64,000 nt of DNA from a virus. Where the stretch lies: positions 35,645-99,644 of the IMG/VR virus record IMGVR_UViG_3300050016_000116, one strand, 5' to 3'. Under the pieces are notes generated by a model that was not told the origin of the DNA, searched no databases, and worked only from the letters and a program-made list of their open reading frames with translations. Below, piece after piece: positions 5,131-48,352 of the stretch (positions within the stretch are counted from its first letter, which is position 1; each line of letters opens with the position of its first letter). The position numbers and the translations under genes were made by a program.

Positions 5131-5489
5131 TGCGCGGCTTCCTCTCCAAGACGTTCCAGGAACAGCTCCGGGTCTTCGACCAGGAGAAGGGGATCGATCA
5201 TCGCCTGGACTTCTGGGTGGAGCAGTTCGGGGGTGGAGCCGGGGCTTGGCTCCTCTGGAACTATCGCAAGCAGATCCACAACGCGGGTGCGGTCGACTTC
5301 CAGATCCCCAGGGAGATCCCCACACCTAACTGGATGCGAGTTGCACTTGAGGCGATCAAGAGACTCCCTTACTGGTCCGTGAATATCGTTGGAGGAACGA
5401 AGGACCCCATGAGGCGCTTCCGAGTTCGCTGGCATCGTCACGGTCACTTCAAACGCAAGCCGTCCCTACCCCCGGAGCAACTCTCATGA
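5130..5489 (+). CDS. Hypothetical protein
   Basis: TGATG coupling upstream and ATGA coupling to thyX. Confidence 0.6.
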   Translation: MRGFLSKTFQEQLRVFDQEKGIDHRLDFWVEQFGGGAGAWLLWNYRKQIHNAGAVDFQIPREIPTPNWMRVALEAIKRLPYWSVNIVGGTKDPMRRFRVRWHRHGHFKRKPSLPPEQLS

Positions 5490-32638: not shown

Positions 32639-33094
32639 GTGACGACCCGAAACATTGTCCGACCTCTCACCCGAGGCGACACGTTCAACTTCCAGGCGCC
32701 GGTCTACGCGGCCAACTTCGCGCTGGGGGTGAACTCTCCGTACACCGCAGGACCGTTCCCCCCGTACTCGGGACCAGGCAACACCCCTCTGGAGAACCTG
32801 ACGGGCTGGTCGGGATACTGCACCCTCAAGTACGACACTCAGGTGCCGGACCAAGCCGCGATCTACCAGGCGACCTCGGGTGTGGTCGGTGGAGTCTCCT
32901 TCCCCACTCCTGCGACGCAGGGTGTTGTCCAGGTCGTCATCCCCGGGTCTGCTACCGCGTTGCTCGCAGACGGAACGGTGACGATCCTCTACGACATCAA
33001 GCTCATCGATCCGACCGGCAACGAGTGGACGGTGGAGTCTGGTTGTATCCAGCTCTTCGCGAACGTCACGCGCGCTGCAGTTGTGCCTCCCTGA
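32639..33094 (+). CDS. BppU-N-like virion adaptor protein
   Basis: RGDT...LTGW...G.V.V.I....T..L....YDI.L.......G.......VTR pattern. Confidence 0.65.
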   Translation: MTTRNIVRPLTRGDTFNFQAPVYAANFALGVNSPYTAGPFPPYSGPGNTPLENLTGWSGYCTLKYDTQVPDQAAIYQATSGVVGGVSFPTPATQGVVQVVIPGSATALLADGTVTILYDIKLIDPTGNEWTVESGCIQLFANVTRAAVVPP

Positions 33095-33116
33095 CCTCTC
33101 GGGTAGGCTCCGCACC

Positions 33117-34010
33117 ATGGCGCTTTCCACTGAGTACAAGGGCAAGTACGGCAAGGGCGGTAGGAGTGACAGCGAGGCATCCCTCGCAGCGCTCGTGACA
33201 GCGGGGACTCCCCAGCTCTCGGTCCGGCACCTTCTCGGGGGTGCGATGCGTCTCCCTGCTTCGTTCTCCCTGGAGCAGTACGTCCAGTCGGTCTTCGACC
33301 AGGGGCAGACCTCCTCCTGCGTCGGATGGGCGCTCGCGCAGGCGATCTTCCTGCGATGCCTCGTGATGGGCGTGCGGATCGCGTTCCCTTCCCCCGAGTG
33401 CATCTACGTGGTCGCTCGTGCGATGGAGAGGCAGCTCCAGAACCTCACCCCGGCTCAAGCTCCTCTCGCGGACGAGGGATCAGAGCCCGCGCTGGCATGG
33501 CTCGGTCTCGCGCAGTGGGGAGCCGCGAGCAGTGATGCGTGGCCGTTCGACGCAGCGACCATCAACAATGAGCCCGATCTTGAATTGCTGGAGATCGCGA
33601 GTGCGTTCAAGGTCACCGGCTACTACAAGTTGTCATCGACGGGTGCACAGCGTTCGATCGACGTCCAGCAGGCGATCTCTTCCGGCTATCCGGTCTCCAT
33701 CGGAGTCGACGTGGATCAAGCCTTCGAGTCGTACAACGGGGGCAAGACGAACGGTGTCCCGAACTACGTCACGCAACCGGACAAGAAAGCTCTCCTGGGA
33801 GGGCATGAGCTGCATCTTGTCGGGTTCCAGAACTTCCCGAACGGGAAGACCCTCTACCGTGGCGTGAACCAGTGGACTACCGGGTGGGGTGATTCGGGTC
33901 TCTTCTGGGCGGACGATCCTTGGATCCAGGACTCGGATGCGGAAGCCACCGTGGTCACGGTTGGTCCTACGGGTCACGAAGGCGGGATGAACCGAAAGGT
34001 GGCGGCGTGA
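33117..34010 (+). CDS. Papain-like (C1) cysteine peptidase
   Basis: DQGQTSSCVGWA, GGHELHLVGF, NQWTTGWGDSG. Confidence 0.88.
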   Translation: MALSTEYKGKYGKGGRSDSEASLAALVTAGTPQLSVRHLLGGAMRLPASFSLEQYVQSVFDQGQTSSCVGWALAQAIFLRCLVMGVRIAFPSPECIYVVARAMERQLQNLTPAQAPLADEGSEPALAWLGLAQWGAASSDAWPFDAATINNEPDLELLEIASAFKVTGYYKLSSTGAQRSIDVQQAISSGYPVSIGVDVDQAFESYNGGKTNGVPNYVTQPDKKALLGGHELHLVGFQNFPNGKTLYRGVNQWTTGWGDSGLFWADDPWIQDSDAEATVVTVGPTGHEGGMNRKVAA

Positions 34011-34360
34011 TGCGAGCAATCGGTGGAACCCTCGTGGCGCTCTTCCTCACGTGCATCGTCGGGTTGATGCTCACTGCTTGTCCGCAGCAACCCATCGTCC
34101 CTCCTGGGGATGCGGATGCGACCCCCAACCCCATCGTGGTTGTGACGACAATCAACACGTGTGCCCTGGCTTGTACGAATCTCCGAGCTGTTCCCTGTCC
34201 CGAGGGATGGAGCGTGGACGGAGGGGACACTTGCGAGGTCGTCTGCGGCAAGACCCTTGGCGGGACATTCGACATGAACCCGACGTGTCTTCTGGACCCT
34301 TCGAAGAAGACGGGGGATGCGATACGTACCTGCAAGACGGTGAAGTGCGCCGGTCACTGA
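34010..34360 (+). CDS. Cys-rich lipoprotein
   Basis: Signal peptide with LTAC lipobox; eight further Cys. Confidence 0.7.
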   Translation: MRAIGGTLVALFLTCIVGLMLTACPQQPIVPPGDADATPNPIVVVTTINTCALACTNLRAVPCPEGWSVDGGDTCEVVCGKTLGGTFDMNPTCLLDPSKKTGDAIRTCKTVKCAGH

Positions 34361-34508
34361 TTACGGCTCCCTGTCGCCTCAAGGACGCGTTTTCAGCCCA
34401 AGGTTGACCCGAGACCCATCCAAGGGTCGGTAGTGCGTCCTAGGGGCTCCTAGACCCATCCGTGGTACGGATTCGAAAAGCGCTTTTCGAATCCAGGAGG
34501 AGCCCCCC

Positions 34509-35237
34509 ATGACTGTTACCGGACTCGACCTCAGCAGTGTTCAGGGAATCATCACGCCATCTCAGATGGGTTCGGTGAAGGCAAGGGGAACAAGGTTCCT
34601 CATTGCGAAGGTCGGCAACGGGAACTCCAAACCTGATCCCGACTGGCGGGTGAACTTTGATCTTGCACGCACGTTCGACTTCATTCGTGGCATCTATCAC
34701 TTCCTCTACCTTGGTCTCCCCATCGACCCGAACCACCCGGGCAGAGGACCCGAGGAGCAGGCAGAGGCACACTACAAGGCGTGTGCGGGGTTGGGTTCGA
34801 ACACGGGAGACCTCCCCGCTACCGCAGACTTCGAGTGGCCGGATTCGTCCCTCTGGGGCAAGCCCATCCCCGGGGTAGAGAACTCCGTGGTGTCGAAGGC
34901 AGCAGCTCAGGATTGCGCACTCCGCTACCTCGCCAGGTACAAGGCGCTCCAGGGTCGACCGATGATGGTCTACGGCTCTCCCTGGTTCCTCCACATGCTC
35001 GATCTCCCGGTGGAGGTGAACGAGTGCCCGCTCTGGGCAGCGGCGTACGCGAAGAACATTCCCCCGATTCATCCGTGGGCGGGATGGTCCCTCTGGCAGA
35101 CAGGGGGAGGCTCCCTTCAACGACTCCCGAGTGGAGTGCCGGTGGACACGGACGAGTGCGTGGATGAAGCGACACTCTTTCGTCTGCTGGGAACTCCCGA
35201 TCCCACCGCGGATACGGATCCCCCTCCCGCGACTTGA
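34509..35237 (+). CDS. Endolysin, glycoside hydrolase family 25
   Basis: GLDLSSVQG, GIYHF, ADFE, MVYG, PLWAAAY, WSLWQ, VDTD. Confidence 0.88.
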   Translation: MTVTGLDLSSVQGIITPSQMGSVKARGTRFLIAKVGNGNSKPDPDWRVNFDLARTFDFIRGIYHFLYLGLPIDPNHPGRGPEEQAEAHYKACAGLGSNTGDLPATADFEWPDSSLWGKPIPGVENSVVSKAAAQDCALRYLARYKALQGRPMMVYGSPWFLHMLDLPVEVNECPLWAAAYAKNIPPIHPWAGWSLWQTGGGSLQRLPSGVPVDTDECVDEATLFRLLGTPDPTADTDPPPAT

Positions 35238-35285
35238 ACGGCAGACGGAGGGGATGAACCCTTCCCGCATGCTAGAACCGCGCGC

Positions 35286-35762
35286 ATGATGACCCTTCAT
35301 GCTGCCTTGGTTGCCTACGTTCTGACCGCCATGTGCTCTTGGTTGCCGATGCGCCACTGGCAGACGCTCGACTACCAGATCATCGCAGAGGCGAGCGTCA
35401 CGGCTGCTTCAGAGGATCCCGAGGACGCCATTCAACTCGTCGCTATTGCGTCCTTCGAGAGTCGGTTCGCAGTCACCGCACACGGCAAGCTCGGGGAGAT
35501 CGGCGCGTTCCAACTTCGTCCCTTCTTCACCAAGCCAGCGTCTTGTGCGCCTTGGTCCGAGCACCCGATGACAACCTGCACCCCGACCGAGCAAGCGCGC
35601 ATGGCGCTCTACCGATGGAAGACGATGGGACGGTGTTCGTACACGGGGGAAGCGCCAGCGTCAGAGTGTCCTTTCGCAGACCACCGCTACCTGCGTGCGT
35701 TCGACTACAGCTATGCCCATCCCTTCGTTCCTCCGAGTCAAGAGGTGGTCGCGGCTCGATGA
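35286..35762 (+). CDS. Lysozyme-like/lytic transglycosylase with an N-terminal hydrophobic segment
   Basis: LVAIASFESRF...GEIGAFQL. Confidence 0.65.
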   Translation: MMTLHAALVAYVLTAMCSWLPMRHWQTLDYQIIAEASVTAASEDPEDAIQLVAIASFESRFAVTAHGKLGEIGAFQLRPFFTKPASCAPWSEHPMTTCTPTEQARMALYRWKTMGRCSYTGEAPASECPFADHRYLRAFDYSYAHPFVPPSQEVVAAR

Positions 35763-35794
35763 CGTGAGGTAGAGTGCTTCCTCTGGAGGCGCTC

Positions 35795-36382
35795 ATGTCC
35801 GAAACAACCAACGATCACTTCATCGTCACCCACGATCCCGAGAACGAGTATTGGGACGGCTCTCTCGTCTCTCCCGGGGTCAAGGACCAGCTCGAAGCTC
35901 GGGGAGTTGTTCTGCTCCCCACCCTTCCCATGCTCTTCCGGCTCTCGGGAGTCGGAGGGTACGCGAAGCGCGCATGGGGAGCGGGGCTCTCCCTGGGGGC
36001 CACCCAACCTCGCATCCACGCGCCGCTGACGATGTACTGCTCAGCGCAGCACGCAGCGCTCCATTGGGCAGCGCGGCTCATCCCGGAGCCCGACTTCCTG
36101 AAGAAGCTTGACCGGGACATCCCTGAGCTTCTCGTGGGGTTCCTCAAGATCTCGATCGACGCTTCCCAGGTCATCGCGAACAAGGCAGGCGTCACCCCGC
36201 GGGACTCGGGGGTGGACATCCGGGCGCTCACGAAGATGAAGCTTTCGAAGACGGGGGACTTTCTAGTCCAAGGCAGCGCGACGATCCGGTGCCCGACAGA
36301 CGGTCACTACGGCTTCGGGCTCTACGGGTATGCCCCGGGTCTGAGGCTCGTTTGGGCTGCGGTCTCCCAAGCGGCTCAGTAG
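35795..36382 (+). CDS. Hypothetical protein
   Basis: GGAGG RBS before MSETT. Confidence 0.6.
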   Translation: MSETTNDHFIVTHDPENEYWDGSLVSPGVKDQLEARGVVLLPTLPMLFRLSGVGGYAKRAWGAGLSLGATQPRIHAPLTMYCSAQHAALHWAARLIPEPDFLKKLDRDIPELLVGFLKISIDASQVIANKAGVTPRDSGVDIRALTKMKLSKTGDFLVQGSATIRCPTDGHYGFGLYGYAPGLRLVWAAVSQAAQ

Positions 36383-36436
36383 CAAGTAGGGGCTCTCTCG
36401 TGTAGGTTCCTCCTTCAGCAGGAGGTTCACCTACCG

Positions 36437-37003
36437 ATGCGCTCTACGCTTGCCAGGAAGGCTCACCCAGGTCGAATCCTTCTCGTCTTCGCCGCAATGA
36501 TTGCGGTGGCAATCGTCGCATGTGCGCGATTCGACCTTCTCGTACGAGCCCCAGCAGGTTCGATCGTGGATGCGTCTGTCGATGCGTCGATGGGGGTCAC
36601 CACGAACGTCAAGGTGGAGTACGTGGCGGTGAACGGAGAACCGCTTCAACAGCCGAAGCACTTCGGTGCGGTGGCAACGTTCGTAGATCCCTTCTCCTAC
36701 CTCACGGGCACTTGCTCAGCCTGCGATGGAGGGATCTGCAACGTTGCTATTGCGACCGGGTTCTACGTCACTGGACTCGCCATGCACGCCACTGCGGATG
36801 GGGGAGCTTTGACAATCACCCCGAGTGGTCCCCAGGTGACCGACGCACAACCAGGAGGCGCGATTCCCATCCCCGCGGGTGGCTTCTCGCTCGCGCGACC
36901 GAGCATCAACGGGAGCCAGAGCGAGCTGGGCAACGCATCCAACTTCCAGTTTTCGGGGTGTGATTCTTACTTCCTTGCGCTCCAGAAGGGTGTGGGTCCG
37001 TGA
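36437..37003 (+). CDS. Putative lipoprotein/exported beta-rich protein
   Basis: AGGAGG RBS; hydrophobic stretch ending IVAC. Confidence 0.6.
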   Translation: MRSTLARKAHPGRILLVFAAMIAVAIVACARFDLLVRAPAGSIVDASVDASMGVTTNVKVEYVAVNGEPLQQPKHFGAVATFVDPFSYLTGTCSACDGGICNVAIATGFYVTGLAMHATADGGALTITPSGPQVTDAQPGGAIPIPAGGFSLARPSINGSQSELGNASNFQFSGCDSYFLALQKGVGP

Positions 37004-37004
37004 G

Positions 37005-37862
37005 ATGGTTGCTGCTGCCCTCACGTTCGTCCAAGGGTTGACGGTAGGCATCGCGGGACAAGCGCTCTACGGCGCACTCGCGGCTGCCGTCGTGGTCAGC
37101 AACGGGAACAACACGGGCGTCGCAGTCTGGACGTACACCGTGATCGACGTTCCTCCGGGGAGCGTGGTCCCCACGGGAGTTGTCCAAACGGGGTTGACGC
37201 CCACGTGGACGTTCTTTCCGGACGTCACGGGTGGCTACCTTGTCGAGGTCACGGTCACCGATGCCTTCGGGAACACGGTTTCCGACATCCGGTGCTTCGG
37301 GGTCAAGGAGGCGCACGGGCTCTTCCAACCGCCATTCGCAGCCAACGCGGCGATGCTGAACTTCAGCAACGGCAAGCGCGGCTGGGCAGTCATCATGGAG
37401 GCGTGGTTCACGTACATCCTCACGATCGGGGGTGGAGGCGGTGGAGGGATCATCCCACCGACCGCGGTGAACAACGCGGGCATGACTTCCGTTGTGCTTG
37501 CTGCGCTCGTGGCTTCGAACACAAACGCAGGGGCACGTCTTGCAGTCGATTGCTCAGCAGGATCGGTTGCTATCGGAATGCCAGCTCTCCCCGCGGGTAC
37601 TCCGGTCATCATCACGATCGTGAAGGGTGATCCTTCGGTTCATGCGGTCACCCTCACGGGACCGGGTGGACAGACGATCCAGCATCAGAATGGACCGATG
37701 ACTGCGACGTATACCACTGCTCCCCCGACTCTCCAGGACACTACCCTCTCCGCGGGTACGTCCGCAGTCACGAACATCTGGGTGTTCGATGCTCCCGGGT
37801 ATCTCGGGACTACGAGTGTTTACAGCGCGAGCAACGCAGCCGGCAGCTACACGGTGAACTGA
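37005..37862 (+). CDS. Putative virion structural protein (PKD/Ig-like N-terminus, fibre-like C-terminus)
   Basis: WT.IDVPPGS...FFPDVTGGYLVEVTVTD. Confidence 0.6.
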   Translation: MVAAALTFVQGLTVGIAGQALYGALAAAVVVSNGNNTGVAVWTYTVIDVPPGSVVPTGVVQTGLTPTWTFFPDVTGGYLVEVTVTDAFGNTVSDIRCFGVKEAHGLFQPPFAANAAMLNFSNGKRGWAVIMEAWFTYILTIGGGGGGGIIPPTAVNNAGMTSVVLAALVASNTNAGARLAVDCSAGSVAIGMPALPAGTPVIITIVKGDPSVHAVTLTGPGGQTIQHQNGPMTATYTTAPPTLQDTTLSAGTSAVTNIWVFDAPGYLGTTSVYSASNAAGSYTVN

Positions 37863-37863
37863 C

Positions 37864-40635
37864 ATGAAGCGAATCATCTTCTTCGCACTCACTATCGTGT
37901 GCGTTGTCGGAGTTGTCTTGGGGGTCGCATGCGTAACCCCTTCTTCGAACGACATGTTGTCTTTTGCTGATGCAGGCGAAGGAGGACGTTCGTTTGGAGC
38001 GGGTCAGAACTACGCGATCCCGGTTGGACCAGCGGGTCCTACTCCTCCCTTCGTCAATGGGCTCACTGACGCGTACCCCTACCCAACCGTTGCAGCTCTT
38101 CCGACAGTAGGAGGAACTCCGGGTACGTGTCCCTATTGGGATGATGCGGGCACCCTCCAGCACTCAACTACGTGTGGAGGTCCTGATGGGGCAATCCCCG
38201 TTACTGTCTTCTCGGGGGACCTCTATGGTCCAAACACTGGACCGCAAGGCATCAACAGCATCACGCCCGACGGCGGAGTGGGCGCCACGGTGCCATTCAA
38301 TGCGTCCACGCTGCAGTGGCCCGCGGGGGCGTCTCCAGGGCTCGTGCAGACGGCTGCCATCGACGGAGGGGGTGCGTCGGCCGTGATTGCGCCCCAGCAA
38401 TGCACGAACAGCGGAGACCCCGGGGGTCTCCATGTCGTTTTGGGCGCGAGTTGCGACGGAGGCGCTGGCGCAGCCGGCTTCACGGTCGGAACCGAGGCTG
38501 GTGCCAACTTCCTGGTCCAGGGCAACGGGCTGATCTACGGCGTCGGCTACGCCACACGCCCGAACGGGAACGACTACATCATCAGTTCTAGCGACAATCT
38601 GGGGCTCAATGCTCCGCTCGCAGCAGCCGATGGCGGCACAGGGGTCACGCTCAGGCAGAACAATCAACCACTAATTAACAGCCAAACCGGGTTCACTGAG
38701 TTCTACACTCAGAATGTGGCCTTTCAGTCGGGTCTCACGTACACGGCGCCGATCATCATCGCACCTAATACGCGCACGGCCAGCACGCCGCCAGGTGATG
38801 TGTACCTGCACGGGCAGGGCGCGATCGTGGGCGCGGGCGCGGGCGCTCAAAGTGGCGGACGGTTGCTGCTATCGGGCGGTGCGCAAGCGGACGGCGGCGC
38901 GGCAGGCGGCGTGCAGCTTGGCGTCGGCAGCCAGTTCGATGGTGGCACTGGCGAGAACACGAGCACGCTCTACAACGTATACGCGGAGACGGTGTGCGAC
39001 GGACCACTCACGTGCGGTGTAGCGCTAGGGCAAGGAGGCACCGGCATCCGCGGTACGGGGACGATCACGAGCGGCAATGGGTGGACGTGGTTCGCGCCGG
39101 CGATCACGGTCCCGACCACGGCCCCAACCGCGGGCACGCTGTGCTGGTCGGACACGTCCACGGGCGTTCTGACGTGCTGGACTGCAGGCGCAATAGCCCC
39201 CTTCATTGTCGGCTCAGGAGGTGGTGGCGGGACTCTGGTGGGGGACGCTGTTGGGCCCATCGGGTCGAACACGGTAGAGAAAATCTGGCACGCGCCGTTC
39301 GACGGCAACCTCGCGACCGCAACGACGGGGTGGGGCATCTACTGGAACCCGTCGAGCTCGGCCGACTGGAAGGCTGGTCCGCTCGACTTCGGCGTTGCCG
39401 GCTCGATCACTGGACTCCTCCCCGTTGCGAACGGTGGGTGGGCTACCTCCTCGACCCCATACGGCACGGCCGGCTACTGCTTCACGTCGAACGGCGGGAG
39501 CACCCCGCCGAGCTGGCAGGTTTGCCCAGGTGGGGTGGACGGCGGGGGAGGCGGAGGCGCACTGACAGTCGGCGGCGGCGGAGGCAGCTTCACCGCGGAC
39601 GTAACAGGCAGCATCTCGGGAACAAACATCCCCACGACGCTCGCGGCCATACAGGGCGTCACGCTCCTCGCGTCAGGAGGGCATGCCCCTACGAGCGGGC
39701 AGGTGCTCGGGTACAACGGCGTCGACTGGCTACCCGTTCCGAATTCGGGATGCGCGTCGATTGGGACGCTCGCGCAGGACGTCACTGCGAGCACACCGGC
39801 AACGTGCGGCGGCTCCGCAAACGCTGTCGTGGCGGGCATCGGTACGGGCCTGTCAAACGTACCCGTTCATGCAGGGACGCTTACGTGGGACACCAGCACC
39901 ACCCCGTACCTGTTCTACGGCGGCACCAACGCCTTCCAGATCCAGGGCTTCGGTGACATTGACCTCTTTCCGAGCGGCAACGCCATCATTAGCGCCGGGG
40001 GTGTCATCGATCTCGAGACCGCAGGGACGATCCGGGAGCAAGTCAACTCGACCAACGTGCAGTTCAATGTGAACACGTTGGAGTGGGCCAGCGCGGTCAG
40101 CGCGCCGAACCTGACTCAACTGCCAACGTCGAGCGGACCTGGACATACGATCACGATCTCGGGGCAGTCGACGTCGGGCGCCCTGCAGTCGGGCGGCGTC
40201 GTCGCTATCATCGGAGGCGGCAACGGCGCCGGTGGCATTCCCGGCGACGTGCAGCTGCAGAGCGTGACGACAGGCAATGCGTTGGGCCGAACGGACTCTA
40301 CTGGGGCCAAGTGGGTCACCGACAACGGGGTCCGACGCCACCTCAACGTACTCAGTTCTAGCTACCAGATCCTAACGTCAGATCACGTAGTAGAAATGAC
40401 CGGCACTGGCGCACAGGTGGACACGCTGCCGCATACACCGACCGTGGGGGACGAGTATGTGGTGTGCTGCCGGATCTCGGCGATATCAGGCTCCTGCACG
40501 CTCGCCGCCGGCAGCGGCCAGAGCATCAACGGCGCAACGAGCCTCCTGCTCGCGGCACCAACGTTCATCACGTGCGAGACCGTCTTGGCGGTGTCGAGCA
40601 CGCAGTTCGTGACGATTGCCGAGGTGCTGAAATGA
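37864..40635 (+). CDS. Large tail-fibre-like protein with an N-terminal signal peptide/lipobox
   Basis: MKRIIFFALTIVCVVGVVLGVAC; repeated L.GD..GP...T.V modules, PTSGQVLGYNG, fibre-type C-terminal module. Confidence 0.7.
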   Translation: MKRIIFFALTIVCVVGVVLGVACVTPSSNDMLSFADAGEGGRSFGAGQNYAIPVGPAGPTPPFVNGLTDAYPYPTVAALPTVGGTPGTCPYWDDAGTLQHSTTCGGPDGAIPVTVFSGDLYGPNTGPQGINSITPDGGVGATVPFNASTLQWPAGASPGLVQTAAIDGGGASAVIAPQQCTNSGDPGGLHVVLGASCDGGAGAAGFTVGTEAGANFLVQGNGLIYGVGYATRPNGNDYIISSSDNLGLNAPLAAADGGTGVTLRQNNQPLINSQTGFTEFYTQNVAFQSGLTYTAPIIIAPNTRTASTPPGDVYLHGQGAIVGAGAGAQSGGRLLLSGGAQADGGAAGGVQLGVGSQFDGGTGENTSTLYNVYAETVCDGPLTCGVALGQGGTGIRGTGTITSGNGWTWFAPAITVPTTAPTAGTLCWSDTSTGVLTCWTAGAIAPFIVGSGGGGGTLVGDAVGPIGSNTVEKIWHAPFDGNLATATTGWGIYWNPSSSADWKAGPLDFGVAGSITGLLPVANGGWATSSTPYGTAGYCFTSNGGSTPPSWQVCPGGVDGGGGGGALTVGGGGGSFTADVTGSISGTNIPTTLAAIQGVTLLASGGHAPTSGQVLGYNGVDWLPVPNSGCASIGTLAQDVTASTPATCGGSANAVVAGIGTGLSNVPVHAGTLTWDTSTTPYLFYGGTNAFQIQGFGDIDLFPSGNAIISAGGVIDLETAGTIREQVNSTNVQFNVNTLEWASAVSAPNLTQLPTSSGPGHTITISGQSTSGALQSGGVVAIIGGGNGAGGIPGDVQLQSVTTGNALGRTDSTGAKWVTDNGVRRHLNVLSSSYQILTSDHVVEMTGTGAQVDTLPHTPTVGDEYVVCCRISAISGSCTLAAGSGQSINGATSLLLAAPTFITCETVLAVSSTQFVTIAEVLK

Positions 40636-41474
40636 GAGCGAACAAGCGGGCACTGTTTCTCCTGGTGCTGGTAACGGCCGCTGTTGTGGTGGCCTTGTAC
40701 GGCGTTTCCAATGCGCAGCAGTACAGCCCAAGCGGCGGCAACACCTTCGGAGGCTTGACAGCGGTGGACGCTACCGCACCGCTCGTACTGACGGTTAGCG
40801 GGACGACCGTGGTGGGCTCTATCTTGGCGTCCACGGACAGCGTGCCTGGGAGCATGAGCGCGGCGGACAAGACGAAGCTCGATGGGATTACGGCGGGATC
40901 AAACACCGTGAACGGCCTAACGTCCCTCACGGGCAGCGTCACCGCGAGCGGGCCAGGCGCGAGCGCCGCGACAGTCGTACAGGTAGACGGCACGGGCACG
41001 GCCACCATCGTGGACGGTGGGACAGCAGCGAACATCGTCGCAACGCAGACCGCATTCGCCTCGGGCAACAAGAACGCTGTCTACAGCGCTCGACAGCGTG
41101 TGCAGACAACGGACGGCACCACCGCGGTTATCTGCTGCCAGTACACGCCGACGAATGACGAGGTGGACCGCTGGAACGTGACCATCACCGCGCGCGATGC
41201 GCAGGGCGACGGAGGCAGCGAGAAATACGGCAGCTTCGGCACGGGCGACATGTCGTTCGTGAGCAACCGTTTTGGCTCTGGGGCGCCTACGCTTTCTCCG
41301 TCGACTCCGGTGCAGATCAACATCGGCGGGGCCGGGTTCTCGGACGGTGCAGTGTGGAACATGACGCTGGCTGCCGTTGTGAGCACCAGCACGGTGCTTA
41401 TCGAGGTCACTGGCGTGCGCGGGTACAACCCAATCACCGTGGACTGCTCATGCGAAGCGCAGACGGGACAATGA
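40632..41474 (+). CDS. Fibre-like protein with a Sec signal peptide
   Basis: MRANKRALFLLVLVTAAVVVALYGVSNA-QQ; GSMSAADKTKLDGI fibre repeat. Confidence 0.7.
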   Translation: MRANKRALFLLVLVTAAVVVALYGVSNAQQYSPSGGNTFGGLTAVDATAPLVLTVSGTTVVGSILASTDSVPGSMSAADKTKLDGITAGSNTVNGLTSLTGSVTASGPGASAATVVQVDGTGTATIVDGGTAANIVATQTAFASGNKNAVYSARQRVQTTDGTTAVICCQYTPTNDEVDRWNVTITARDAQGDGGSEKYGSFGTGDMSFVSNRFGSGAPTLSPSTPVQINIGGAGFSDGAVWNMTLAAVVSTSTVLIEVTGVRGYNPITVDCSCEAQTGQ

Positions 41475-42406
41475 GACGCCTCTTTCCACTGTTCTTGGTC
41501 CTGCTCGCGCTGCTACCAGGCGAGCGACACGCTGCGGCCATGCGCTCGCTCGATTCGGTCCCCGCGATGCGTGGATCTGGGTTCGCACCTCCGGTGCCGC
41601 AGGTACCACCGCGCCTGTCCGCTGCCGTACTGTGGCTACGTGCGGATGCGATCCAGGGGGTCGCGAACGCGGGCGCGGTTACGACGTGGCCAGATCGCAG
41701 TGCGACTGCTGCAGTCTTCGTGCAGGCAACGACAGCAAACAAGCCCGTCTGGAATGCGTCGGATATTACCTATTTCGGTGGCCAGCCCTCGATTACGTCA
41801 ACCGCCTCCAAGTTTTTGGAGTCCGTTGGCAACGTGGTCCAGGCGCAGCCATTCACTCTCTATGCGATCGCCGCAACCACGTCAGTCTCTACGTACCAGG
41901 TGGTGATGTCCAACTCGGGCGATTCGTTCGAATTTGGCTTCAAGACGACAGCCTACTATGCATACGCCCCGACCAATACGTGGGGGGTGGCCACCGGCGG
42001 CGCCGCACACCTGATCTGCTACGAGGCCAGCGGCGCATCGAGCGCGATGTATGTCGACTCGTCTACCGTCGCCAAGACGCTCGCTACCGGCACCGGGAAC
42101 ACGACTGGCGCGTTCGCTGGGCAGGCGGTTGTCGGGTTCAAGACCGGCACCATCGGGCTGATCGGCAACCTCGCAGAGATCATCCTGTACCCCGGGCTGG
42201 ACTCGGCCGCGCAGCGCGCGGATGTCTTCGTCTACGCTGCCAACCACTACCACCTAGCGGTCGCAGCAGCCGATGGCGACCCAGACTGGCGACTCGCGCT
42301 CCTCTACGTGCCGCCCGCAACCGACGTGGGGCCCGCGCTGACAGGTTGGCCGTATCCGACGGTCACCCCGGTCTCGTATGAGGCGAACTACTGGGGCGGG
42401 ATCTGA
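41471..42406 (+). CDS. ConA/LamG-like lectin domain protein with a signal peptide
   Basis: MRRLFPLFLVLLALL; LWLRAD...V.TWPDRS...G.LAEIILY. Confidence 0.7.
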   Translation: MRRLFPLFLVLLALLPGERHAAAMRSLDSVPAMRGSGFAPPVPQVPPRLSAAVLWLRADAIQGVANAGAVTTWPDRSATAAVFVQATTANKPVWNASDITYFGGQPSITSTASKFLESVGNVVQAQPFTLYAIAATTSVSTYQVVMSNSGDSFEFGFKTTAYYAYAPTNTWGVATGGAAHLICYEASGASSAMYVDSSTVAKTLATGTGNTTGAFAGQAVVGFKTGTIGLIGNLAEIILYPGLDSAAQRADVFVYAANHYHLAVAAADGDPDWRLALLYVPPATDVGPALTGWPYPTVTPVSYEANYWGGI

Positions 42407-42670
42407 TGACCGCCCCGCCCCTCGACGAGCTGCTGCGCAAATACCTCGCCACCGAGCCCATTGAGGAATCCTCGGATGTCTGATGACAGGCTCGACGTCG
42501 TACTGAGCAAGCTCGACTCGATGGAGCGTCGGTTCGAGTCCTTCGTTCCGAAGTGGTTGGAGTGCATCAATCAGTGTTCGAAGGGACCGGCAGTGGAGTG
42601 GCCCCACTGAACCGTGTGACACCTACGACCGGGACGGGTAGGCTCCACACACGATGAAGAGGGAGAGGTC

Positions 42671-43174
42671 ATGAAGTTTCCGTTGATCTGGAAGCGTTTC
42701 ACTGCACCGACCGGAAAGCAGCTCGGGCTGGGTACGGATGCCGCGCCGACAAACGCGAACCCAATCCCTTCTGCAACGGTCACTGACAACATCCTGTCTT
42801 CGCGAGCAGTCGGGAAGAACGGGAACTCCGCCAGGCGTATCGCGACCATCTGTCGCTACATCGGCGCTGGCGCACTCGTGCAGCTCCCCATCCAGGCGTT
42901 CGTCTACGACACGGGGTTGGGGTTGTGGTTCCCTCTCGCATCTCCCGGGGTGCAGTTCCCCAACCCCCCTCTCATCGCGCCCAACGGACCCCCCACGTAC
43001 TTTGATCTGGTGGTCCCGATCGACAACATCCCGACCACGACCACACTTCAAGGTCCGGAGTCGGGAGCGCCCCAGATCGTCTTCATCGTCGGGGCTCCGG
43101 TGAACCCGGCACCGGGCGCGGGGGAGTACGACTTCGCTGCGTGCTTCGATCTCGCGGCTGCGTTCGGTCCCTGA
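42671..43174 (+). CDS. Hypothetical (possibly structural) protein
   Basis: GGAGAGG RBS; beta-rich. Confidence 0.6.
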   Translation: MKFPLIWKRFTAPTGKQLGLGTDAAPTNANPIPSATVTDNILSSRAVGKNGNSARRIATICRYIGAGALVQLPIQAFVYDTGLGLWFPLASPGVQFPNPPLIAPNGPPTYFDLVVPIDNIPTTTTLQGPESGAPQIVFIVGAPVNPAPGAGEYDFAACFDLAAAFGP

Positions 43175-43180
43175 TTCCTC

Positions 43181-43483
43181 GTGAAGCTCCTGGAGGCTGT
43201 TCGCGTTCGGATTGGCGAAGGGCTCATCCACCTGGGGACGAGGGTGCTGGGTTTGGACTTCGCTACCCTGGAAGGATTCGAAAAGCGCTTTTCGAATCCC
43301 GAGGATGACGAGGAGGAAGACCACGACGTAGCGCTGGCTCAACCTGTCGTCATCACTGAGCTAGCGCAGGAGATGATAAGACAGGGGAGACCGATGCCCC
43401 CTCCCGCTCCTTCCCCTCCTCGTCCACCTCCCACGGGGAGCATCGCGGCAAGGATGCTTGCTGCCAATCGTTCTCGCCGGTAG
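43181..43483 (+). CDS. Hypothetical protein containing an in-frame palindrome copy
   Basis: ORF between genes; the palindrome reads FEKRFSN. Confidence 0.5.
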   Translation: MKLLEAVRVRIGEGLIHLGTRVLGLDFATLEGFEKRFSNPEDDEEEDHDVALAQPVVITELAQEMIRQGRPMPPPAPSPPRPPPTGSIAARMLAANRSRR

Positions 43484-43498
43484 GAAAAGAGACCTCAC

Positions 43499-45322
43499 AT
43501 GAATATGGTCCCGGTGGGTATGACGTCATTCGGAACAACGGGAGGTGGAGCCTCTTCGTTCCGCGCACGCACGTTCCTCGATGCGCAGCGTTGGGCAGAT
43601 CTCGATCGGCGTCTCTCCTACTTCGACTGCACCCAGCACAACTTCAAGAAGTACGATTGGGACGGGCGAATCCTCATGCCGTCTGGGGGGAACTTCAACG
43701 TCACCCAGCCGTTCCTCGGAGGGCAGCAGCCGTCTTTCTACGTTCCCCTGCGCCAACGACGTCCTGCTGCCCCCTATCGACTCGCGCGGGTCATCGTCAA
43801 GGCGTTCACCACGATGCTCTTCGGGGAAGGTCGCTTCCCGCGCTTTCACGTGGAGGGGGACTCGGACACCGAGGACTACGCCCACGCGCTTGTGAAGGCG
43901 CTGAAGCTCCCCACGAAGATGATCCGCGCCAGGAACTACGGTGGGTCCACGGGAGCGGTCGGGATGTCCTGGGGCTTCCTCGAAGGGAAGCCGCGATGTC
44001 AGCCCCACAACGTGCGCGACCTCTTCGTTCACGAGTGGGAGGATCGCGAGGAGTGCATTCCGCGGCATGTCACCGAACTCTACCGCTCGGAGGTGGAGGA
44101 GTGGGACAGCTCGAAGCGGCGCTACGTCACGAACGTGTACCTGAATCGACGTGACTGGACACCCAACGTCGACATCGTCTTCATGCCCGCGAAGCTCGAA
44201 CCGGGGAAGGAGGCGCAGTGGATCCCGGACCTCACGAAGAGTTCGAAGCACGATGACGGGGAGATCCACTTCACGTGGATTCAGAACCAACCGGATGACA
44301 ACCCTGACTCCGTTCCAGACTACGAAGGGCTCTTTGAGAACTTTGACTCTCTGGACATCATCCTCTCTGTCATCACCAGAGGTGCCACTCTCAACCTTGA
44401 TCCCACCCTCGTTCTGAAGATGGATCCCGACCTCATCAACGCGATGGGCGTGCGCAAGGGTTCAGAGAATGCACTTGTGGTCGGCGAAGAAGGTGGTGCC
44501 GAGTACATGGAGCTGGATGGCAAGAGCATCGATGCTGGCATCAATCTCTTCAATGCAAAGAGGAAGGCGATCCTTGAAGTCGCGCAGTGCGTGCTCCCCA
44601 ACCCCGACGAGATCACTGCCAACGGGACTTCCTCCGTTGCGATGAAGCTTCTCTACCAGCCGATGCTGGGGCAGCTTGATGTTCTCCGTGAGCAGTACGC
44701 AGATGGGATGAGCCGGATGATCATGACGATGATCGCGATCTCCCGCGCGACCGGGCGATCCACCGTCACCGTCTACAACGAGCAGAACGAACCCTCCGAG
44801 GTCCAGCGGGAGATCCTTCTCCCGCAGAAGGTCACGGAGGAGGATGAGCTGGATGACGACGGGACTCCCACCGGGGAGAAGAAGACCATCCGGGAGGACC
44901 GGAACCCGGGAGACGGTGAGGATTGCGAGGCGCAATGGGGCCCGTACTTCCCTCCGACCCCGAATGACCAGAGTGTCACCGCTACGACCCTGTCGCTCGC
45001 AACTGGCGCTCAGCCCTTCATGAGCACGCAGACCGCGACGGAGATCTTCATGCAGGTCTTCAATCGCAGGCCCCAGGACGAGCTACAACGTGTTCAGCGG
45101 GAGAAGGATGCGAATCAGGCTCAGCAGAGTCAGATGTTTGCAGCAGGGGCCCCGGGAGGGGCTGTAAGCTCTCCTGGTCAGTTGCCTCCAGGAGCCAAGC
45201 CGAAGGGGGGAAAACCTCTAGGCGGGGCTCCTAAGCCCAGCGTTGGTCCAAAGAAGGGGGCTATGGGAACCGGGACGGAGTCTGGTCCACCGAGTCCGAA
45301 ACCTGGGTCTCAGATCGAGTAG
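43499..45322 (+). CDS. Portal protein
   Basis: Size, position before the MuF-like gene, SSVAMKLLYQPML and W.P.FP motifs of SPP1 gp6-like portals. Confidence 0.82.
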   Translation: MNMVPVGMTSFGTTGGGASSFRARTFLDAQRWADLDRRLSYFDCTQHNFKKYDWDGRILMPSGGNFNVTQPFLGGQQPSFYVPLRQRRPAAPYRLARVIVKAFTTMLFGEGRFPRFHVEGDSDTEDYAHALVKALKLPTKMIRARNYGGSTGAVGMSWGFLEGKPRCQPHNVRDLFVHEWEDREECIPRHVTELYRSEVEEWDSSKRRYVTNVYLNRRDWTPNVDIVFMPAKLEPGKEAQWIPDLTKSSKHDDGEIHFTWIQNQPDDNPDSVPDYEGLFENFDSLDIILSVITRGATLNLDPTLVLKMDPDLINAMGVRKGSENALVVGEEGGAEYMELDGKSIDAGINLFNAKRKAILEVAQCVLPNPDEITANGTSSVAMKLLYQPMLGQLDVLREQYADGMSRMIMTMIAISRATGRSTVTVYNEQNEPSEVQREILLPQKVTEEDELDDDGTPTGEKKTIREDRNPGDGEDCEAQWGPYFPPTPNDQSVTATTLSLATGAQPFMSTQTATEIFMQVFNRRPQDELQRVQREKDANQAQQSQMFAAGAPGGAVSSPGQLPPGAKPKGGKPLGGAPKPSVGPKKGAMGTGTESGPPSPKPGSQIE

Positions 45323-45325
45323 TTC

Positions 45326-46420
45326 GTGACTTCCGGTCTTTCCCTCGCGCATGAGACGCTTCTGTCCAACCGGGCGGAAGCGCTCAACCTCGCCAACGGC
45401 AAGGGACTGCGGGACACCAAGGTGCTCCTGGAGGAAGCAGCCAGGGATCTGAAGAAGCGCATCTCTCAGCGGGTTCGACCGGGCAAGGACGACACCTTCA
45501 CGCTGGCGCAGCTCAAGACCACACTCGCGCAAGTCGAAGATGTCACCCGTGGGCTCGTGCAGGGGATCCAGACGAACCTTCTCGACACGGGGGACGTTGC
45601 AGCCAATCTCGCTGCCAGCGACACCATCGACTACCTGCGCACCGCAGACAAAGCGTTCCGAGGAGTGGGGGTTCAGCCGCTCGCGTTGAAGGAAGTGACG
45701 ATGTTGGACGCGGCGACCCAAGGTGTTCGCTCTTCTATCCTCTCGCGTCTCGCGTCCTCGGGGGAACCGATCGAAGGGGCGGACGAAGAGCCCCATCCTG
45801 CGAAGATGGGGATCCTCCAGCGCTACGGAGTCGAGACCATCGGAAACTTCGAGAGGGTGTTGCAGCGCGGGCTCATCACGCGGAAGTCGTGGAGTGCGAT
45901 GGAAGCGGAGATCACGGAACAGAGTCCGTTCCTCCAAGGGCAACCCGCATGGTGGGCAACTCGCATTGTCAGAACTGAAGCAATGTCCGCCTACAACGCT
46001 GCCGGTTGGGAGAGCATCCGCGAAGCTGATGACCAGCTCGAAGACATGGTGAAGTTCCTCGCTGCCACGTTTGATGACCGAACGGGAGCTGACTCCTATG
46101 CGGTGCATGGGCAATGCCGGCGACCCGAGCAAGCGTTCCAGAGTTGGTACGGGTTTTACCAGCACCCCCCGAATCGACCCAACGATCGTGAGATCGTGGT
46201 GCCTCATCGCATCTCTTGGAAGATCCCTCCCTACCTCGCTGCACGTTCGGATGAAGAGGTGGCGAGAGTGTGGAAACTCGAAGGGAACAAGAAGGGAGTT
46301 CCTCCGCGTCCTCCTATCACCACAGTTGAGTTCTCCTTGTTCGGCAAAGAGCCGGAGAAGAAGCTGCCTGCCAAGACACCAGAGTTGGAGGAGAGTCCCG
46401 AGGACATTGACGCTCATTGA
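45326..46420 (+). CDS. Head morphogenesis protein (Mu gpF/SPP1 gp7-like)
   Basis: ATRIVRTE...AYN, ATFDDRT...HGQ, HPPNRPNDR. Confidence 0.85.
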   Translation: MTSGLSLAHETLLSNRAEALNLANGKGLRDTKVLLEEAARDLKKRISQRVRPGKDDTFTLAQLKTTLAQVEDVTRGLVQGIQTNLLDTGDVAANLAASDTIDYLRTADKAFRGVGVQPLALKEVTMLDAATQGVRSSILSRLASSGEPIEGADEEPHPAKMGILQRYGVETIGNFERVLQRGLITRKSWSAMEAEITEQSPFLQGQPAWWATRIVRTEAMSAYNAAGWESIREADDQLEDMVKFLAATFDDRTGADSYAVHGQCRRPEQAFQSWYGFYQHPPNRPNDREIVVPHRISWKIPPYLAARSDEEVARVWKLEGNKKGVPPRPPITTVEFSLFGKEPEKKLPAKTPELEESPEDIDAH

Positions 46421-46506
46421 GGGCAACGGTGGACGAGTAGCCACGCTTCGGGTACCACTCAGGGAGATTCGAAAAGCGCTTTTCGAATCACGTAGGGAGT
46501 GGCCAC

Positions 46507-46722
46507 ATGAGCGTCTTCAAGCCCAAGTCGACACCGACAACCAATGAGAACGAGACGCGGCCTGTCGCAGCTCCTCTCCAGGGCAAGGAGGTTGCTCACT
46601 CCCGAGACACGGGCGATCCTCTGCCGCAGTCGAGCACCGACACTCCTGACCATCCCCCGGAGATTGCGTGGCCGGTGGCGGGTGGTCAGGATGACCGCAA
46701 GCCGTTCAAGTCCCTCAAGTAG
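46507..46722 (+). CDS. Small disordered protein ending KPFKSLK
   Basis: GGGAG RBS. Confidence 0.6.
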   Translation: MSVFKPKSTPTTNENETRPVAAPLQGKEVAHSRDTGDPLPQSSTDTPDHPPEIAWPVAGGQDDRKPFKSLK

Positions 46723-46746
46723 GTCCAACCCTAAGGAGCAGTCATC

Positions 46747-47052
46747 ATGGCTCAGAATCCCGCGTCTCCCCCCTTCGCGTCTCCCTCGGGTCAGCCCAAG
46801 GGGCAGGAGCCGACTTCCAGCGGCGCTCACAACTTCGTCAAGGACCCGACCTCGGGTTCAGGCGCGGGTGGGGGACAGAAGGACATCATGAAGTCCCGTC
46901 CGCAAAGCGAGGCGCGTTCCGAGAACGAGCCGAACCCCCAGGAGATCCCGAAGGGCGGCAAGATCCTCAAGGCGGACCCTTCCCCGCTCCAGAGGAACGA
47001 CTTCGACGCAGTGGGCCCGCAGCCCAAGGCGCCCTTCAAGGGCATGAAGTAA
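46747..47052 (+). CDS. Small disordered protein ending APFKGMK
   Basis: AAGGAG RBS. Confidence 0.65.
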   Translation: MAQNPASPPFASPSGQPKGQEPTSSGAHNFVKDPTSGSGAGGGQKDIMKSRPQSEARSENEPNPQEIPKGGKILKADPSPLQRNDFDAVGPQPKAPFKGMK

Positions 47053-47059
47053 ACAGCCG

Positions 47060-47479
47060 ATGAGCCTCGCAGCGCAGCTCACCGCAGCTCTCGTGACCGG
47101 GCCTCAACAGGTCACGGACAACCCGTTTCCGAGCGGAGCCTGCACGATCAACTTCGGGCTCAACCCCCCGCAGAAGCAGTACGTGGTCACGACGGGTGAC
47201 CAAGTCGTCACGGTCGCTGCGCCAACACCGAACGTCTACCAGGCGATCGATTGCATTGGGACGGGAGGAGCGGTCACGCAAGCGCTCACGCTCTTCCTTC
47301 GGACGCAAGTGCCGATGATGGTCCAGATGACGTTCAACAACCCGAACGGGGGAACCACCGTCATCACGGAGCCCATCAACGGGGTGAAGCTCCAGGAGTA
47401 TCCAGCAAACGGGACGCTCATTGCGCTGGGGGTTCAGGGGGCAGGATCGATCGAGGTCTGGGCAGCAGGGAATCAGTAG
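47060..47479 (+). CDS. Putative head-associated structural protein
   Basis: Beta-rich; head module. Confidence 0.55.
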   Translation: MSLAAQLTAALVTGPQQVTDNPFPSGACTINFGLNPPQKQYVVTTGDQVVTVAAPTPNVYQAIDCIGTGGAVTQALTLFLRTQVPMMVQMTFNNPNGGTTVITEPINGVKLQEYPANGTLIALGVQGAGSIEVWAAGNQ

Positions 47480-47545
47480 GCAGTGGCAAAGGTGGTGGGA
47501 GGCGTGTAGCCTGCCTCTCATCCACCCCACGAGGAGAGACGAGAG

Positions 47546-48259: not shown

Positions 48260-48284
48260 GCGAGGTCTCGTCACCGACGTAGTG

Positions 48285-48316
48285 AAGGGGAGTGAGCGAA
48301 CCTCACTCCCCTTTTT
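48285..48316 (+). terminator. Rho-independent terminator
   Basis: GGGGAGTGAG-CGAAC-CTCACTCCCC followed by TTTTT. Confidence 0.85.
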
Positions 48317-48352
48317 CATTGAACCCACAAGCAGGAGGCGCAAGAGAACCCC

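Follow-up and report, generated by a model that had tools for sequence, protein, structure and literature searches.

The window analysed here, 64,000 nucleotides of a 100-kb peat-soil phage (IMG/VR record IMGVR_UViG_3300050016_000116), contains five adjacent late genes made of tail-fibre parts, four of which bear bacterial secretion or lipoprotein signals. All five lie on the plus strand and are given with their refined starts. Gene A (36437-37003, 188 aa) translates to a predicted lipoprotein with the lipobox I-V-A-C ending at Cys29 and a predicted mature length of 159 aa. Gene B (37005-37862, 285 aa) has no signal, and with its conserved C-terminal 136 aa it always adjoins a C-type gene. Gene C (37864-40635, 923 aa) is again a predicted lipoprotein (Cys23), with a predicted mature length of 900 aa. 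Gene D (40632-41474, 280 aa) combines a Sec signal, with predicted cleavage at SNA/QQYSPSGG, with a fibre repeat at residues ~40-115 and a putative C-terminal beta-sandwich at ~150-280. Gene E (41471-42406, 311 aa) has a Sec signal (starting MRRLF, predicted cleavage after AAA) and a candidate LamG/concanavalin-like body. A single base separates the A stop from the B start and the B stop from the C start, the C/D and D/E junctions are ATGA overlaps, and Shine-Dalgarno sites are found 5' of A (AGGAGG) and D (GAGGTG). A GTG at 36879, which would give B a twin-arginine-like N-terminus, was rejected as its start because B would then run 125 nt into A and because its homologue on a related contig, L083, lacks this extension.

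The five genes are located between the lysis genes and the portal. Upstream on the same strand are a papain-like (Peptidase_C1) protein without signal (33081-34010; Pfam PF00112 at 5e-8), a Cys-rich predicted lipoprotein of 117 aa (34007-34360; lipobox L-T-A-C, 8 mature Cys) and a GH25 muramidase endolysin, also without signal (34509-35237; Pfam PF01183 at 1e-19 and endolysin PHROGs). Two plus-strand genes without family matches lie between the endolysin and A, one of 158 aa with a hydrophobic N-terminus (35286-35762) and one of 202 aa (35774-36382). Gene F (42671-43174, plus strand, 167 aa), situated between E and the portal, received no assignment from Pfam, PHROGs or NCBIfam. A 26-bp palindrome, GGATTCGAAAAGCGCTTTTCGAATCC, occurs on either side of the block that runs from GH25 to F, its left copy (34469-34494) lying just 5' of the endolysin and its right copy (43274-43299) between gene F and the portal. 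Two contig joints of run X1 (34493>43276 and 34495>46466) were taken as repeat artefacts rather than deletions, since their sides, 23-26 letters long, fall on copies of the palindrome. Depth differences between RNA-library contigs were given no weight in ranking genes, and small shares in lake-water runs were disregarded. The cassette is outside the tail module, with baseplate J at genome positions 5712-6917 and the sheath at window positions 55530-58115. No other recognisable fibre was found in the genome: the candidates at genome positions 6917-8854 and 8867-10525 gave no family or PDB matches. When A-E were compared by BLASTP with the remainder of the genome, no receptor-binding domain in common with tail-module proteins emerged.

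Export signals were judged by PROSITE PS51257 for lipoproteins and by a heuristic Sec/SPase I rule only. The former requires K or R in the first seven residues, an uncharged hydrophobic stretch and a lipobox ending in Cys at position 15-35; the latter a basic n-region, an h-region of ~10-15 hydrophobic residues and small residues at -3 and -1. PS51257 is passed by A and by C (G-V-A-C, with the less common G at -3). D (VSNA/QQ) and E (HAAA/MR) conform to the Sec/SPase I rule: the n-region is basic, the hydrophobic core spans at least 12 residues, and positions -3 and -1 are occupied by small residues. The N-termini and motifs quoted in the first-pass annotation are all present in the translations where it placed them, and its count of export-like starts in four of the five genes was borne out. 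Genome-wide, about 7 of ~104 plus-strand genes have signal-like starts, so that the probability of at least four signals among five adjacent genes is ~1e-4 per position, and 1e-2 to 4e-4 across the genome. Among the 78 complete IMG/VR fibre ORFs sharing the D-type repeat that served as a control, only 2 start in a signal-like manner. The clustering of signals in A-E is not due to chance.

The related peat contig L083 carries a B-C-A module, then two more signal-bearing genes, located two genes 3' of Baseplate_J. Its cassette includes a signal-bearing BNR/sialidase-like gene and does not adjoin lysis genes. Signal-like fibre ORFs were also found within the tail modules of two myovirus contigs (L035 and L057). 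IMG/VR scans with C, the C family, B, D, P0008 and P0040 returned no relatives; GTDB genome scans with the B and D families likewise found none, hence prophages give no clue to the host. Four proteins, D, P0006, L083-7156 and P0004, have Gln at +1, which is reminiscent of the Bacteroidetes Q-rule. No host was deduced from this: D, P0006 and L083-7156 are homologous, E and the BNR gene have no such Gln, and the GC content of 61% and the strong Shine-Dalgarno sites speak against a Bacteroidetes host.

Loss of the signals from homologues had been named in the first-pass annotation as grounds for abandoning the export idea. Instead, every homologue found in the A, C, D and E families retains one: P0001, P0002, P0008, P0010, P0014 and the L083 copy for C, P0006 for D, P0004 for E and the L083 gene at 6663-7061 for A, and this objection therefore falls. 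Lipoboxes read V-I-A-C in P0001, V-V-A-C in P0002, L-V-A-C in P0010 and V-T-A-C in the L083 homologue of A. PS51257 is passed by P0001, P0002, P0010 and C, i.e. four of six C-family proteins; P0008, for which a lipobox is also reported, fails the pattern with L at -2, while the signal of P0014 has V at -1. The Sec/SPase I rule is satisfied by P0006 (A-D-A/Q), P0004 (A-Y-A/Q, with the MRRLF start of E retained), L083 7156 (A-R-A/Q) and L083 8424 (A-S-A/T). The N-terminal signal sequences themselves are conserved among homologues at 34-45% identity. Together with the coupled start and stop codons and the Shine-Dalgarno sites, this argues against true starts downstream of the hydrophobic segments, the other outcome that had been considered damaging. 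Export of A, C, D and E by the predicted signals is well supported, and the sequences and their relatives show the predicted routes to be SPase II and lipidation for A and C, and Sec/SPase I for D and E.

Frequent cysteines had also been remarked upon. This holds for three of the four signal-bearing proteins, with 16 mature Cys in C (in close pairs) and 4 each in A and D, but not for E, which has 1. Cysteine content is 1.4-2.0% in signal-bearing relatives versus a median of ~0.3% in signal-less ones (Mann-Whitney p = 0.002). The signal-less relatives of the C distal part are almost Cys-free, and several match tail-fibre families (phrog_972 and phrog_9729). The mature Cys count is even in 10 of 12 proteins, with the cysteines in close pairs, and this pairing indicates folding outside the cytoplasm with disulfide bonds. 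Given that the signals are kept in relatives, the signal-bearing host-recognition proteins among A-E almost certainly fold outside the cytoplasm, as judged from sequence.

Family searches (Pfam, PHROGs, NCBIfam and PADLOC) gave no match for A, B or C, and weak or no matches for D, with no direct tail-fibre PHROG; PDB sequence searches with C, D and E returned nothing meaningful. C consists of a family-specific N-part (~42-475), a fibre-like distal part (~570-920) and, at its C-terminus, a putative XD1-type beta-sandwich (841-923). The N-part of C is conserved and the distal part variable, while B has a variable N-terminal and a conserved C-terminal part. B is 65% identical over 136 aa to the product of L083 3938-4567, which lies directly 5' of the C homologue there. 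A similar-looking C-terminal motif of B and the C family was aligned by hhalign with a probability of 0.07, which is not significant, and homology is therefore not claimed.

AF2 monomer models were of low confidence overall (pLDDT 47.4 for C from 27 sequences; 43.6 for D from a 2-sequence alignment), with the C-terminal domains alone usable. For C 841-923 (local pLDDT 62-77), the top fold matches have Z-scores of 8.0, 8.0 and 7.9 and rmsd of 2.1-2.4 Å over 78-79 residues, and include CBA120 TSP4 97-180 (Z 8.0, rmsd 2.4 Å) and a Klebsiella phage KP1 baseplate protein. Further matches are CpaA (6o38, Z 6.4) and StcE (4dny, Z 4.7), with those below at Z ≤4.1. The published list of XD1 homologues is the same set (T4 gp9/gp10, CBA120 TSP4, CpaA, StcE; PMC8825819). 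The model thus has C ending in an XD1-type beta-sandwich, as in T4 gp9/gp10 and CBA120 TSP4.

Residues 40-100 of D match repeats located inside long fibre ORFs from at least 80 IMG/VR loci, corresponding to a widespread SMSAADKTKLD-type fibre repeat. The D homologue P0006 retains both the signal and the mature N-terminus QYSPAGGNTFGG. The weak model of the D C-domain best matches phage fibre and tailspike C-domains (Z 5.8-7.4, rmsd ~4 Å), which is taken as a lead only. E matches PHROG 10356 'virion structural protein' at 7e-11, and its distant relatives are domains within giant signal-less phage proteins. The earlier description of E as LamG-like agrees with its Atlas look-alikes, which are phage clusters (feature score 0.98) with Laminin_G_3 in 12-26% of members in some, at TM 0.65-0.76 in the Atlas's own model. 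No Pfam match below 0.1 was obtained, the Laminin_G_3 profile (PF13385) included, and the LamG assignment is likewise a lead.

In the textbook account, tailed-phage assembly is wholly cytoplasmic. A canonical fibre starts with a virion-attachment domain, lacks a signal and contains few Cys, whereas the signal-bearing cassette proteins have an N-terminal export signal and, in C, a C-terminal XD1-type domain. Their N-termini are occupied by predicted signal peptides, not by the attachment domain of a fibre, and the first mature residue is predicted to be a lipidated Cys or Q/M. The premise of the first-pass annotation that virion fibres are made without signal peptides is too strong as a universal statement. 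The GenBank record of Cellulophaga phage phi10:1 (NC_021802.1) labels the signal-bearing gp091-gp094 as structural 'based on experimental MS/MS'. These belong to a comparable run of late genes (gp091-gp095), placed in phi10:1 where the tail module ends distally, whose fibre, pectate-lyase and unknown products all have textbook Sec signals. Unlike A-E, they come from a siphovirus of a Bacteroidota host, have SPase I signals only (with Gln at +1) and no lipoprotein signal, and show no sequence similarity to the cassette proteins. A limited literature search found no paper discussing the phi10:1 signals or export signals of tailed-phage tail fibres in general. As a cultured system, phi10:1 lends itself to the question of where such proteins end up.

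A-E make up a late cassette whose products descend from parts of tail fibres or receptor-binding proteins; it is probably co-transcribed with the endolysin gene. Two fates had been proposed for the proteins: maturation in the periplasm as fibres that then attach to virions, or presentation on the cell as masking factors or adhesins. Both presuppose conserved export signals on fibre-derived proteins, and this premise is strongly supported; the evidence does not discriminate between the two. We slightly favour envelope-resident masking or processing of the receptor over periplasm-matured virion fibres, and put it forward as a tentative reading that falls somewhat short of an even chance. Lipoproteins A and C would stay anchored in the envelope of the infected cell, where the distal XD1-type domain of C may bind a glycan or partner protein, and D, as a fibre tip, and E, with a LamG-like lectin fold, would be released beside them. 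Together, the four could bind or process the surface structure serving as the phage receptor, which would block superinfection and keep new particles from being wasted on cell debris.

Several observations are counted for this envelope-resident role. The acylated N-terminus of C would occupy the usual position of the virion-attachment domain, the cassette is outside the tail module and beside the endolysin and a Cys-rich lipoprotein, and the BNR/sialidase-like gene of L083 is consistent with activity towards surface glycans. Published analogues include the fibre-like MAT adhesins (PMC10769870) and the tailspike-like WceF (PMC7949094), both exported. In its logic the cassette would resemble the T5 Llp and Cor lipoproteins, described as encoded beside receptor-binding genes and acting in the infected-cell envelope on the phage's own receptor (PMC9586334), but here assembled from receptor-binding parts. 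Llp and Cor are small, single-domain proteins without fibre parts, unlike A and in particular the far longer C, and neither A nor C matches the Llp or Cor families (PHROG, Pfam, NCBIfam, PADLOC). Similarly, no sequence or profile link of A-E to known exclusion proteins or defence families was found (PHROGs, PADLOC). If A-E are envelope-resident, phages reuse receptor-binding parts as exported masking or processing factors; superinfection exclusion would then have a new origin, and the prediction of receptor-binding proteins and hosts would be confounded. The signal-less B has no explanation within envelope masking. Expression at the same late stage as the structural genes is equally compatible with a virion part and with a late masking factor.

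Counted against the envelope-resident role is evidence that C, D and E could be real fibres: the position of the L083 module after baseplate J, where tail fibres are found, the lack of another recognisable fibre in the genome, the complementary conservation of B and C, as in an adaptor-fibre pair, the conserved mature N-termini of the D family, and the record of signal-bearing proteins in phi10:1 virions, which keeps a virion route alive. The D fibre repeats, the fibre-family relatives of C, its XD1-type fold and the signal-like fibre ORFs in the L035 and L057 tail modules point the same way. The fibres would be exported, acquire disulfides in the periplasm and join cytoplasm-built particles at holin lesions or at lysis, with a baseplate-borne, signal-less B as the possible adaptor capturing C. 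The host Sec and lipoprotein pathways would then make part of the host-recognition apparatus by oxidative folding outside the cytoplasm, in a two-compartment form of Caudoviricetes assembly. We regard this, both as a fate for the proteins and as an assembly scheme, as possible but doubtful. The predicted lipid anchor at the N-terminus of C and of most C-family proteins would hold the fibre at the membrane and displace its attachment end, the cassette is far from the tail genes in this genome, the literature searched describes no such assembly route, and MS/MS of purified phage can detect co-purifying envelope proteins. If the proteins are on particles, tail-fibre assembly spans two compartments, host range depends on the Sec, Lol and disulfide machinery, and signal peptides are no ground for discarding receptor-binding candidates in annotation. 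With either fate, the family supplies testable constructs in its lipoprotein versions, conserved mature N-termini, paired Cys and signal-less partner.

It is improbable that A-E are egress helpers, i.e. exported glycan-binding or -cutting proteins that loosen capsule, EPS or outer layers before lysis in concert with the endolysin and peptidase. The location beside GH25, the papain-like peptidase and the gene with a hydrophobic N-terminus, within a block bracketed by the palindrome pair, would suit such a role, as would the L083 BNR/sialidase-like protein and a LamG-like E. A precedent for an exported tailspike-like glycanase is Pantoea stewartii WceF, a trimeric tailspike-fold protein acting on the cell's own surface polysaccharide (PMC7949094). 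WceF differs from A-E in having a Tat signal, a chromosomal bacterial gene and a beta-helix glycanase body, a fold not shown for A-E. Moreover, no catalytic family was found in A-E (Pfam, PHROGs, NCBIfam), fibre repeats and XD1 domains serve for binding or spacing rather than catalysis, and the L083 cassette does not adjoin lysis genes.

Adhesins, in the sense of fibres on the infected cell that bind neighbouring hosts and hold them close until lysis, are very unlikely. The arrangement of signal, conserved N-domain, fibre and variable tip parallels the MAT proteins of Bdellovibrio bacteriovorus, described as exported fibre-like adhesins with a Sec signal, a conserved N-domain, a trimeric tail-fibre-like shaft and a variable tip (PMC10769870). 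MAT fibres resemble the cassette in being displayed outside the cytoplasm, in their case to recognise the surface of another cell; they differ in being encoded by a bacterium, the available part of that account reports no lipobox, and no sequence relationship was shown here. Default lipoprotein sorting in diderms ends at the periplasmic face, and the adhesin role is purely inferential. Least credible of all is that the signals are start-choice artefacts or chance hydrophobic N-termini on ordinary cytoplasmic virion proteins: a near-identical copy of E (P0003) was started at codon 24 by another gene caller, but signal conservation, the coupled starts and ribosome-binding sites, the tracking of Cys content with signals and the low base rate among fibre ORFs all argue for genuine signals.

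Genes A to E are packed head to tail on the plus strand (A, 36437-37003; B, 37005-37862; C, 37864-40635; D, 40632-41474; E, 41471-42406; all with refined starts). The A-B and B-C gaps are a single base each, ATGA overlaps join C to D and D to E, and the upstream sites AGGAGG and GAGGTG precede A and D, respectively. The first-pass annotation had noted export-like N-termini on four of these five consecutive genes, and rule-based tests bear this out: A and C are predicted lipoproteins, conforming to the PROSITE lipoprotein rule at Cys29 and Cys23, D and E are predicted Sec substrates, and B has no signal. In D and E, the n-region is basic, a hydrophobic core follows, and positions -3 and -1 hold small residues, with cleavage predicted between SNA and QQ in D and between AAA and M in E. 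A crude whole-genome scan found signal-like starts in ~7 of ~104 plus-strand genes, five of them within 34.0-42.4 kb of the window; the genome-wide chance of signals in four of five adjacent genes is 1e-2 to 4e-4.

The rule-based calls are supported by conservation in homologues. Relatives of A, C, D and E keep their signals, and in this homologue check none was found without one. Classical lipoboxes are present in the C relatives P0001, P0002 and P0010, with a less typical one (A-L-A-C) in P0008 and a signal ending G-V-C in P0014; the A homologue on a related contig, L083, has the lipobox V-T-A-C. For D, the relative P0006 reads ADA followed by QYSPAGGNTFGG, compared to SNA followed by QQYSPSGGNTFGG, so the mature N-terminus is also conserved. 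P0004, 37% identical to E, likewise opens with MRRLF, followed by a hydrophobic core of its own and a predicted cleavage between AYA and Q, which argues against a downstream start. In P0003, a near-identical E, a different gene caller placed the start at codon 24. Export of the signal-bearing proteins from the cytoplasm is well supported by these sequence features and is very probable.

The signal-bearing cassette proteins derive from fibre modules. D carries, at residues 40-115, a match to a repeat of the type TAPIVSSGG...GSMSAADKTKLDGI, found interior to long fibre ORFs at >80 IMG/VR loci. The distal third of C is related to signal-less phage proteins, several of which have matches in phrog_972 and phrog_9729, both tail-fibre families. 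As a whole, C was modelled poorly by AF2 (pLDDT 47.4), with pLDDT 62-77 for the last 83 residues; in this low-confidence model, these residues match a baseplate protein of Klebsiella phage KP1 and residues 97-180 of CBA120 TSP4 (Z 8.0, rmsd 2.1-2.4 Å over 78-79 residues), and unrelated folds score Z ≤4.1, well below the top matches. The TSP4 segment is an XD1 domain, a beta-sandwich type with structural homologues in T4 gp9 and gp10 and in the modules with which two secreted proteases, CpaA and StcE, bind glycans (PMC8825819). CpaA and StcE are likewise among the fold matches of the C end domain. E matches a PHROG annotated 'virion structural protein' and resembles phage proteins, part of them annotated Laminin_G_3; its distant relatives are domains within giant phage proteins lacking a signal. 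The C-terminal sandwich of D shows a weak likeness to domains at the C-terminal ends of fibres and tailspikes from phages (Z 5.8-7.4), a possible relationship that we treat as a lead only. Unlike virion fibres, these signal-bearing proteins lack a defining feature, the signal-less attachment N-terminus, and A and C are not members of the Llp and Cor families.

Mature C contains 16 Cys, with close pairs at 89/104, 180/197, 378/384, 427/438, 539/554 and 630/648 and a further four within 868-904, while mature A and D have four each. Even counts occur in 10 of the 12 signal-bearing mature proteins examined. Among full-length C relatives from an exhaustive HMMER search, Cys content is 1.4-2.0% in the five with signals and has a median of ~0.3% in the sixteen without (Mann-Whitney p = 0.002). 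Such enrichment is as predicted for proteins that fold under oxidising conditions outside the cytoplasm; on its own it is no guide to their final location.

In this genome the cassette is preceded, in order, by genes for a papain-like peptidase, a Cys-rich lipoprotein and a GH25 endolysin and by two unassigned genes, and is followed by the portal gene. A 26-bp palindrome occurs in two identical copies (34469-34494 and 43274-43299), one on each side of the block that runs from the endolysin gene through gene F (42671-43174); the CGGCACTC motifs seen elsewhere upstream in the genome are absent from this block. We tentatively rank first a role in the cell envelope, in which the exported proteins would mask or process receptors. 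C, the largest of the proteins, and most of its family are predicted lipoproteins, such that the end by which a fibre usually attaches to the particle would be acylated and seated in the membrane. The cassette lies beside lysis and envelope genes, away from the tail genes, and its exported neighbours in L083 may bind or cut glycans. A phage lipoprotein that blocks the phage's own receptor is known in T5 Llp, and exported fibre-like or tailspike-like proteins working at cell surfaces are known in MAT fibres and WceF.

The placement of related modules favours virion fibres matured in the periplasm, also proposed in the first-pass annotation, which we consider doubtful and rank second. L083 (8.8 kb, from a peat-type JGI metagenome) is the sole related contig with genomic context. 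It carries, in order, Baseplate_J, a 289-aa gene, a 304-aa gene, B' (65% identical to B over 136 aa), the lipoproteins C' and A', a 423-aa Sec protein with a mature end starting QQFMPSG, and a BNR/sialidase-like Sec gene; the module occupies the tail-fibre position. The remaining L083 tail genes are unrelated to those of this phage, so the module moves between phages in the manner of receptor-binding modules. Only two of the 78 complete fibre ORFs with the D repeat have signal-like starts (L035 and L057), and there too the module lies in the tail-fibre position. Furthermore, this genome has no other recognisable fibre, conservation of B and C is complementary, as for an adaptor and its fibre, and the D family shares conserved mature N-termini. 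In the cultured Cellulophaga phage phi10:1, gp091-gp095 (41847-48878) all open with textbook Sec signals with Gln at +1, and the record annotates gp091-gp094 as structural proteins 'based on experimental MS/MS proteomics'. In the literature searched, no tail fibre of a tailed phage was found to be described as carrying an export signal; the nearest is a passing comment on signal-bearing Porphyromonas phage genes whose function is not known (PMC10367356). A mixed outcome is also possible, in which A and C remain in the envelope while D and E are incorporated into particles. Below envelope masking and virion fibres we place a function as egress helpers, which is unlikely, and then one as adhesins, which is very improbable. 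That the signals are an artefact is hardly credible given their retention in relatives.

The last L083 gene (8424-8825) has a GTG start overlapping the preceding stop, a Sec signal with predicted cleavage between ASA and TTT, and then the BNR/sialidase-like domain (Pfam BNR_2, 1.4e-5, under the gathering score); it runs off the contig end. The signal-like fibre ORFs (L035 7949-11967 and L057 8369-12097) are both in tail modules of two unrelated IMG/VR myovirus contigs, the start being less certain in L035. The next L035 gene, FN3-like, is also signal-bearing (AWA followed by SPQ).

Immediately upstream of the lysis/export block, the papain-family (Peptidase_C1) gene at 33081-34010 has no signal; its product may act on the cell wall as a peptidase or may process exported proteins. 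Between it and the endolysin gene lies a 117-aa predicted lipoprotein (34007-34360; L-T-A-C) with 8 mature Cys, exceeding a typical o-spanin in size and Cys content. The 158-aa protein at 35286-35762 begins with a hydrophobic stretch free of charged residues and contains an ...ASFES... motif recalling lytic transglycosylases, for which it is a candidate; it has no match in Pfam, PHROGs or NCBIfam. Assembly contigs of run X1 leap between palindrome copies (34493 to 43276 and 34495 to 46466), probably a repeat artefact.

Sequencing runs containing the phage DNA carry peat and permafrost metagenome labels. In one peat metatranscriptome run, some contigs match stretches of the peptidase, 35286, C (38760-39101) and capsid genes exactly, and the bins over genes E and F are covered as well. 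DNA carry-over is possible, so these contigs are only weak evidence for transcription of the cassette in nature. Capsid gene contigs have far higher word depth than those of the cassette (33000-43000), contig depth being no basis for ranking genes.

The phage is contractile-tailed and nearly all of its genes are plus-strand; the window covers bases 35645-99644 of one virus record of 99,644 bp. Assigned genes include the large terminase (17770-19524), portal (43499-45322), MuF-like protein (45326-46420), major capsid protein (49602-50996), sheath (55530-58115) and a gp6/J-like baseplate wedge (genome 5712-6917), directly followed by two large unassigned proteins (genome 6917-8854 and 8867-10525). 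Among the GenBank phages compared, no close relative was found, gene C had no match, and the best capsid match was 32%, to a Streptomyces phage. Shortly after the tail module, behind two small ORFs, lies a gene for an 87-aa predicted lipoprotein (genome 11165-11428; L-A-G-C), possibly of the spanin or Llp type. The record's final 100 bases (99545-99644) are a copy of bases 52-151, and its initial 20 bases recur at 99581-99600; these near-terminal repeats suggest a circularly closed or terminally redundant genome. The ThyX gene (5486-7087) is split by an intein with an HNH domain, and a free-standing HNH endonuclease gene (51034-51849) immediately follows the capsid gene.
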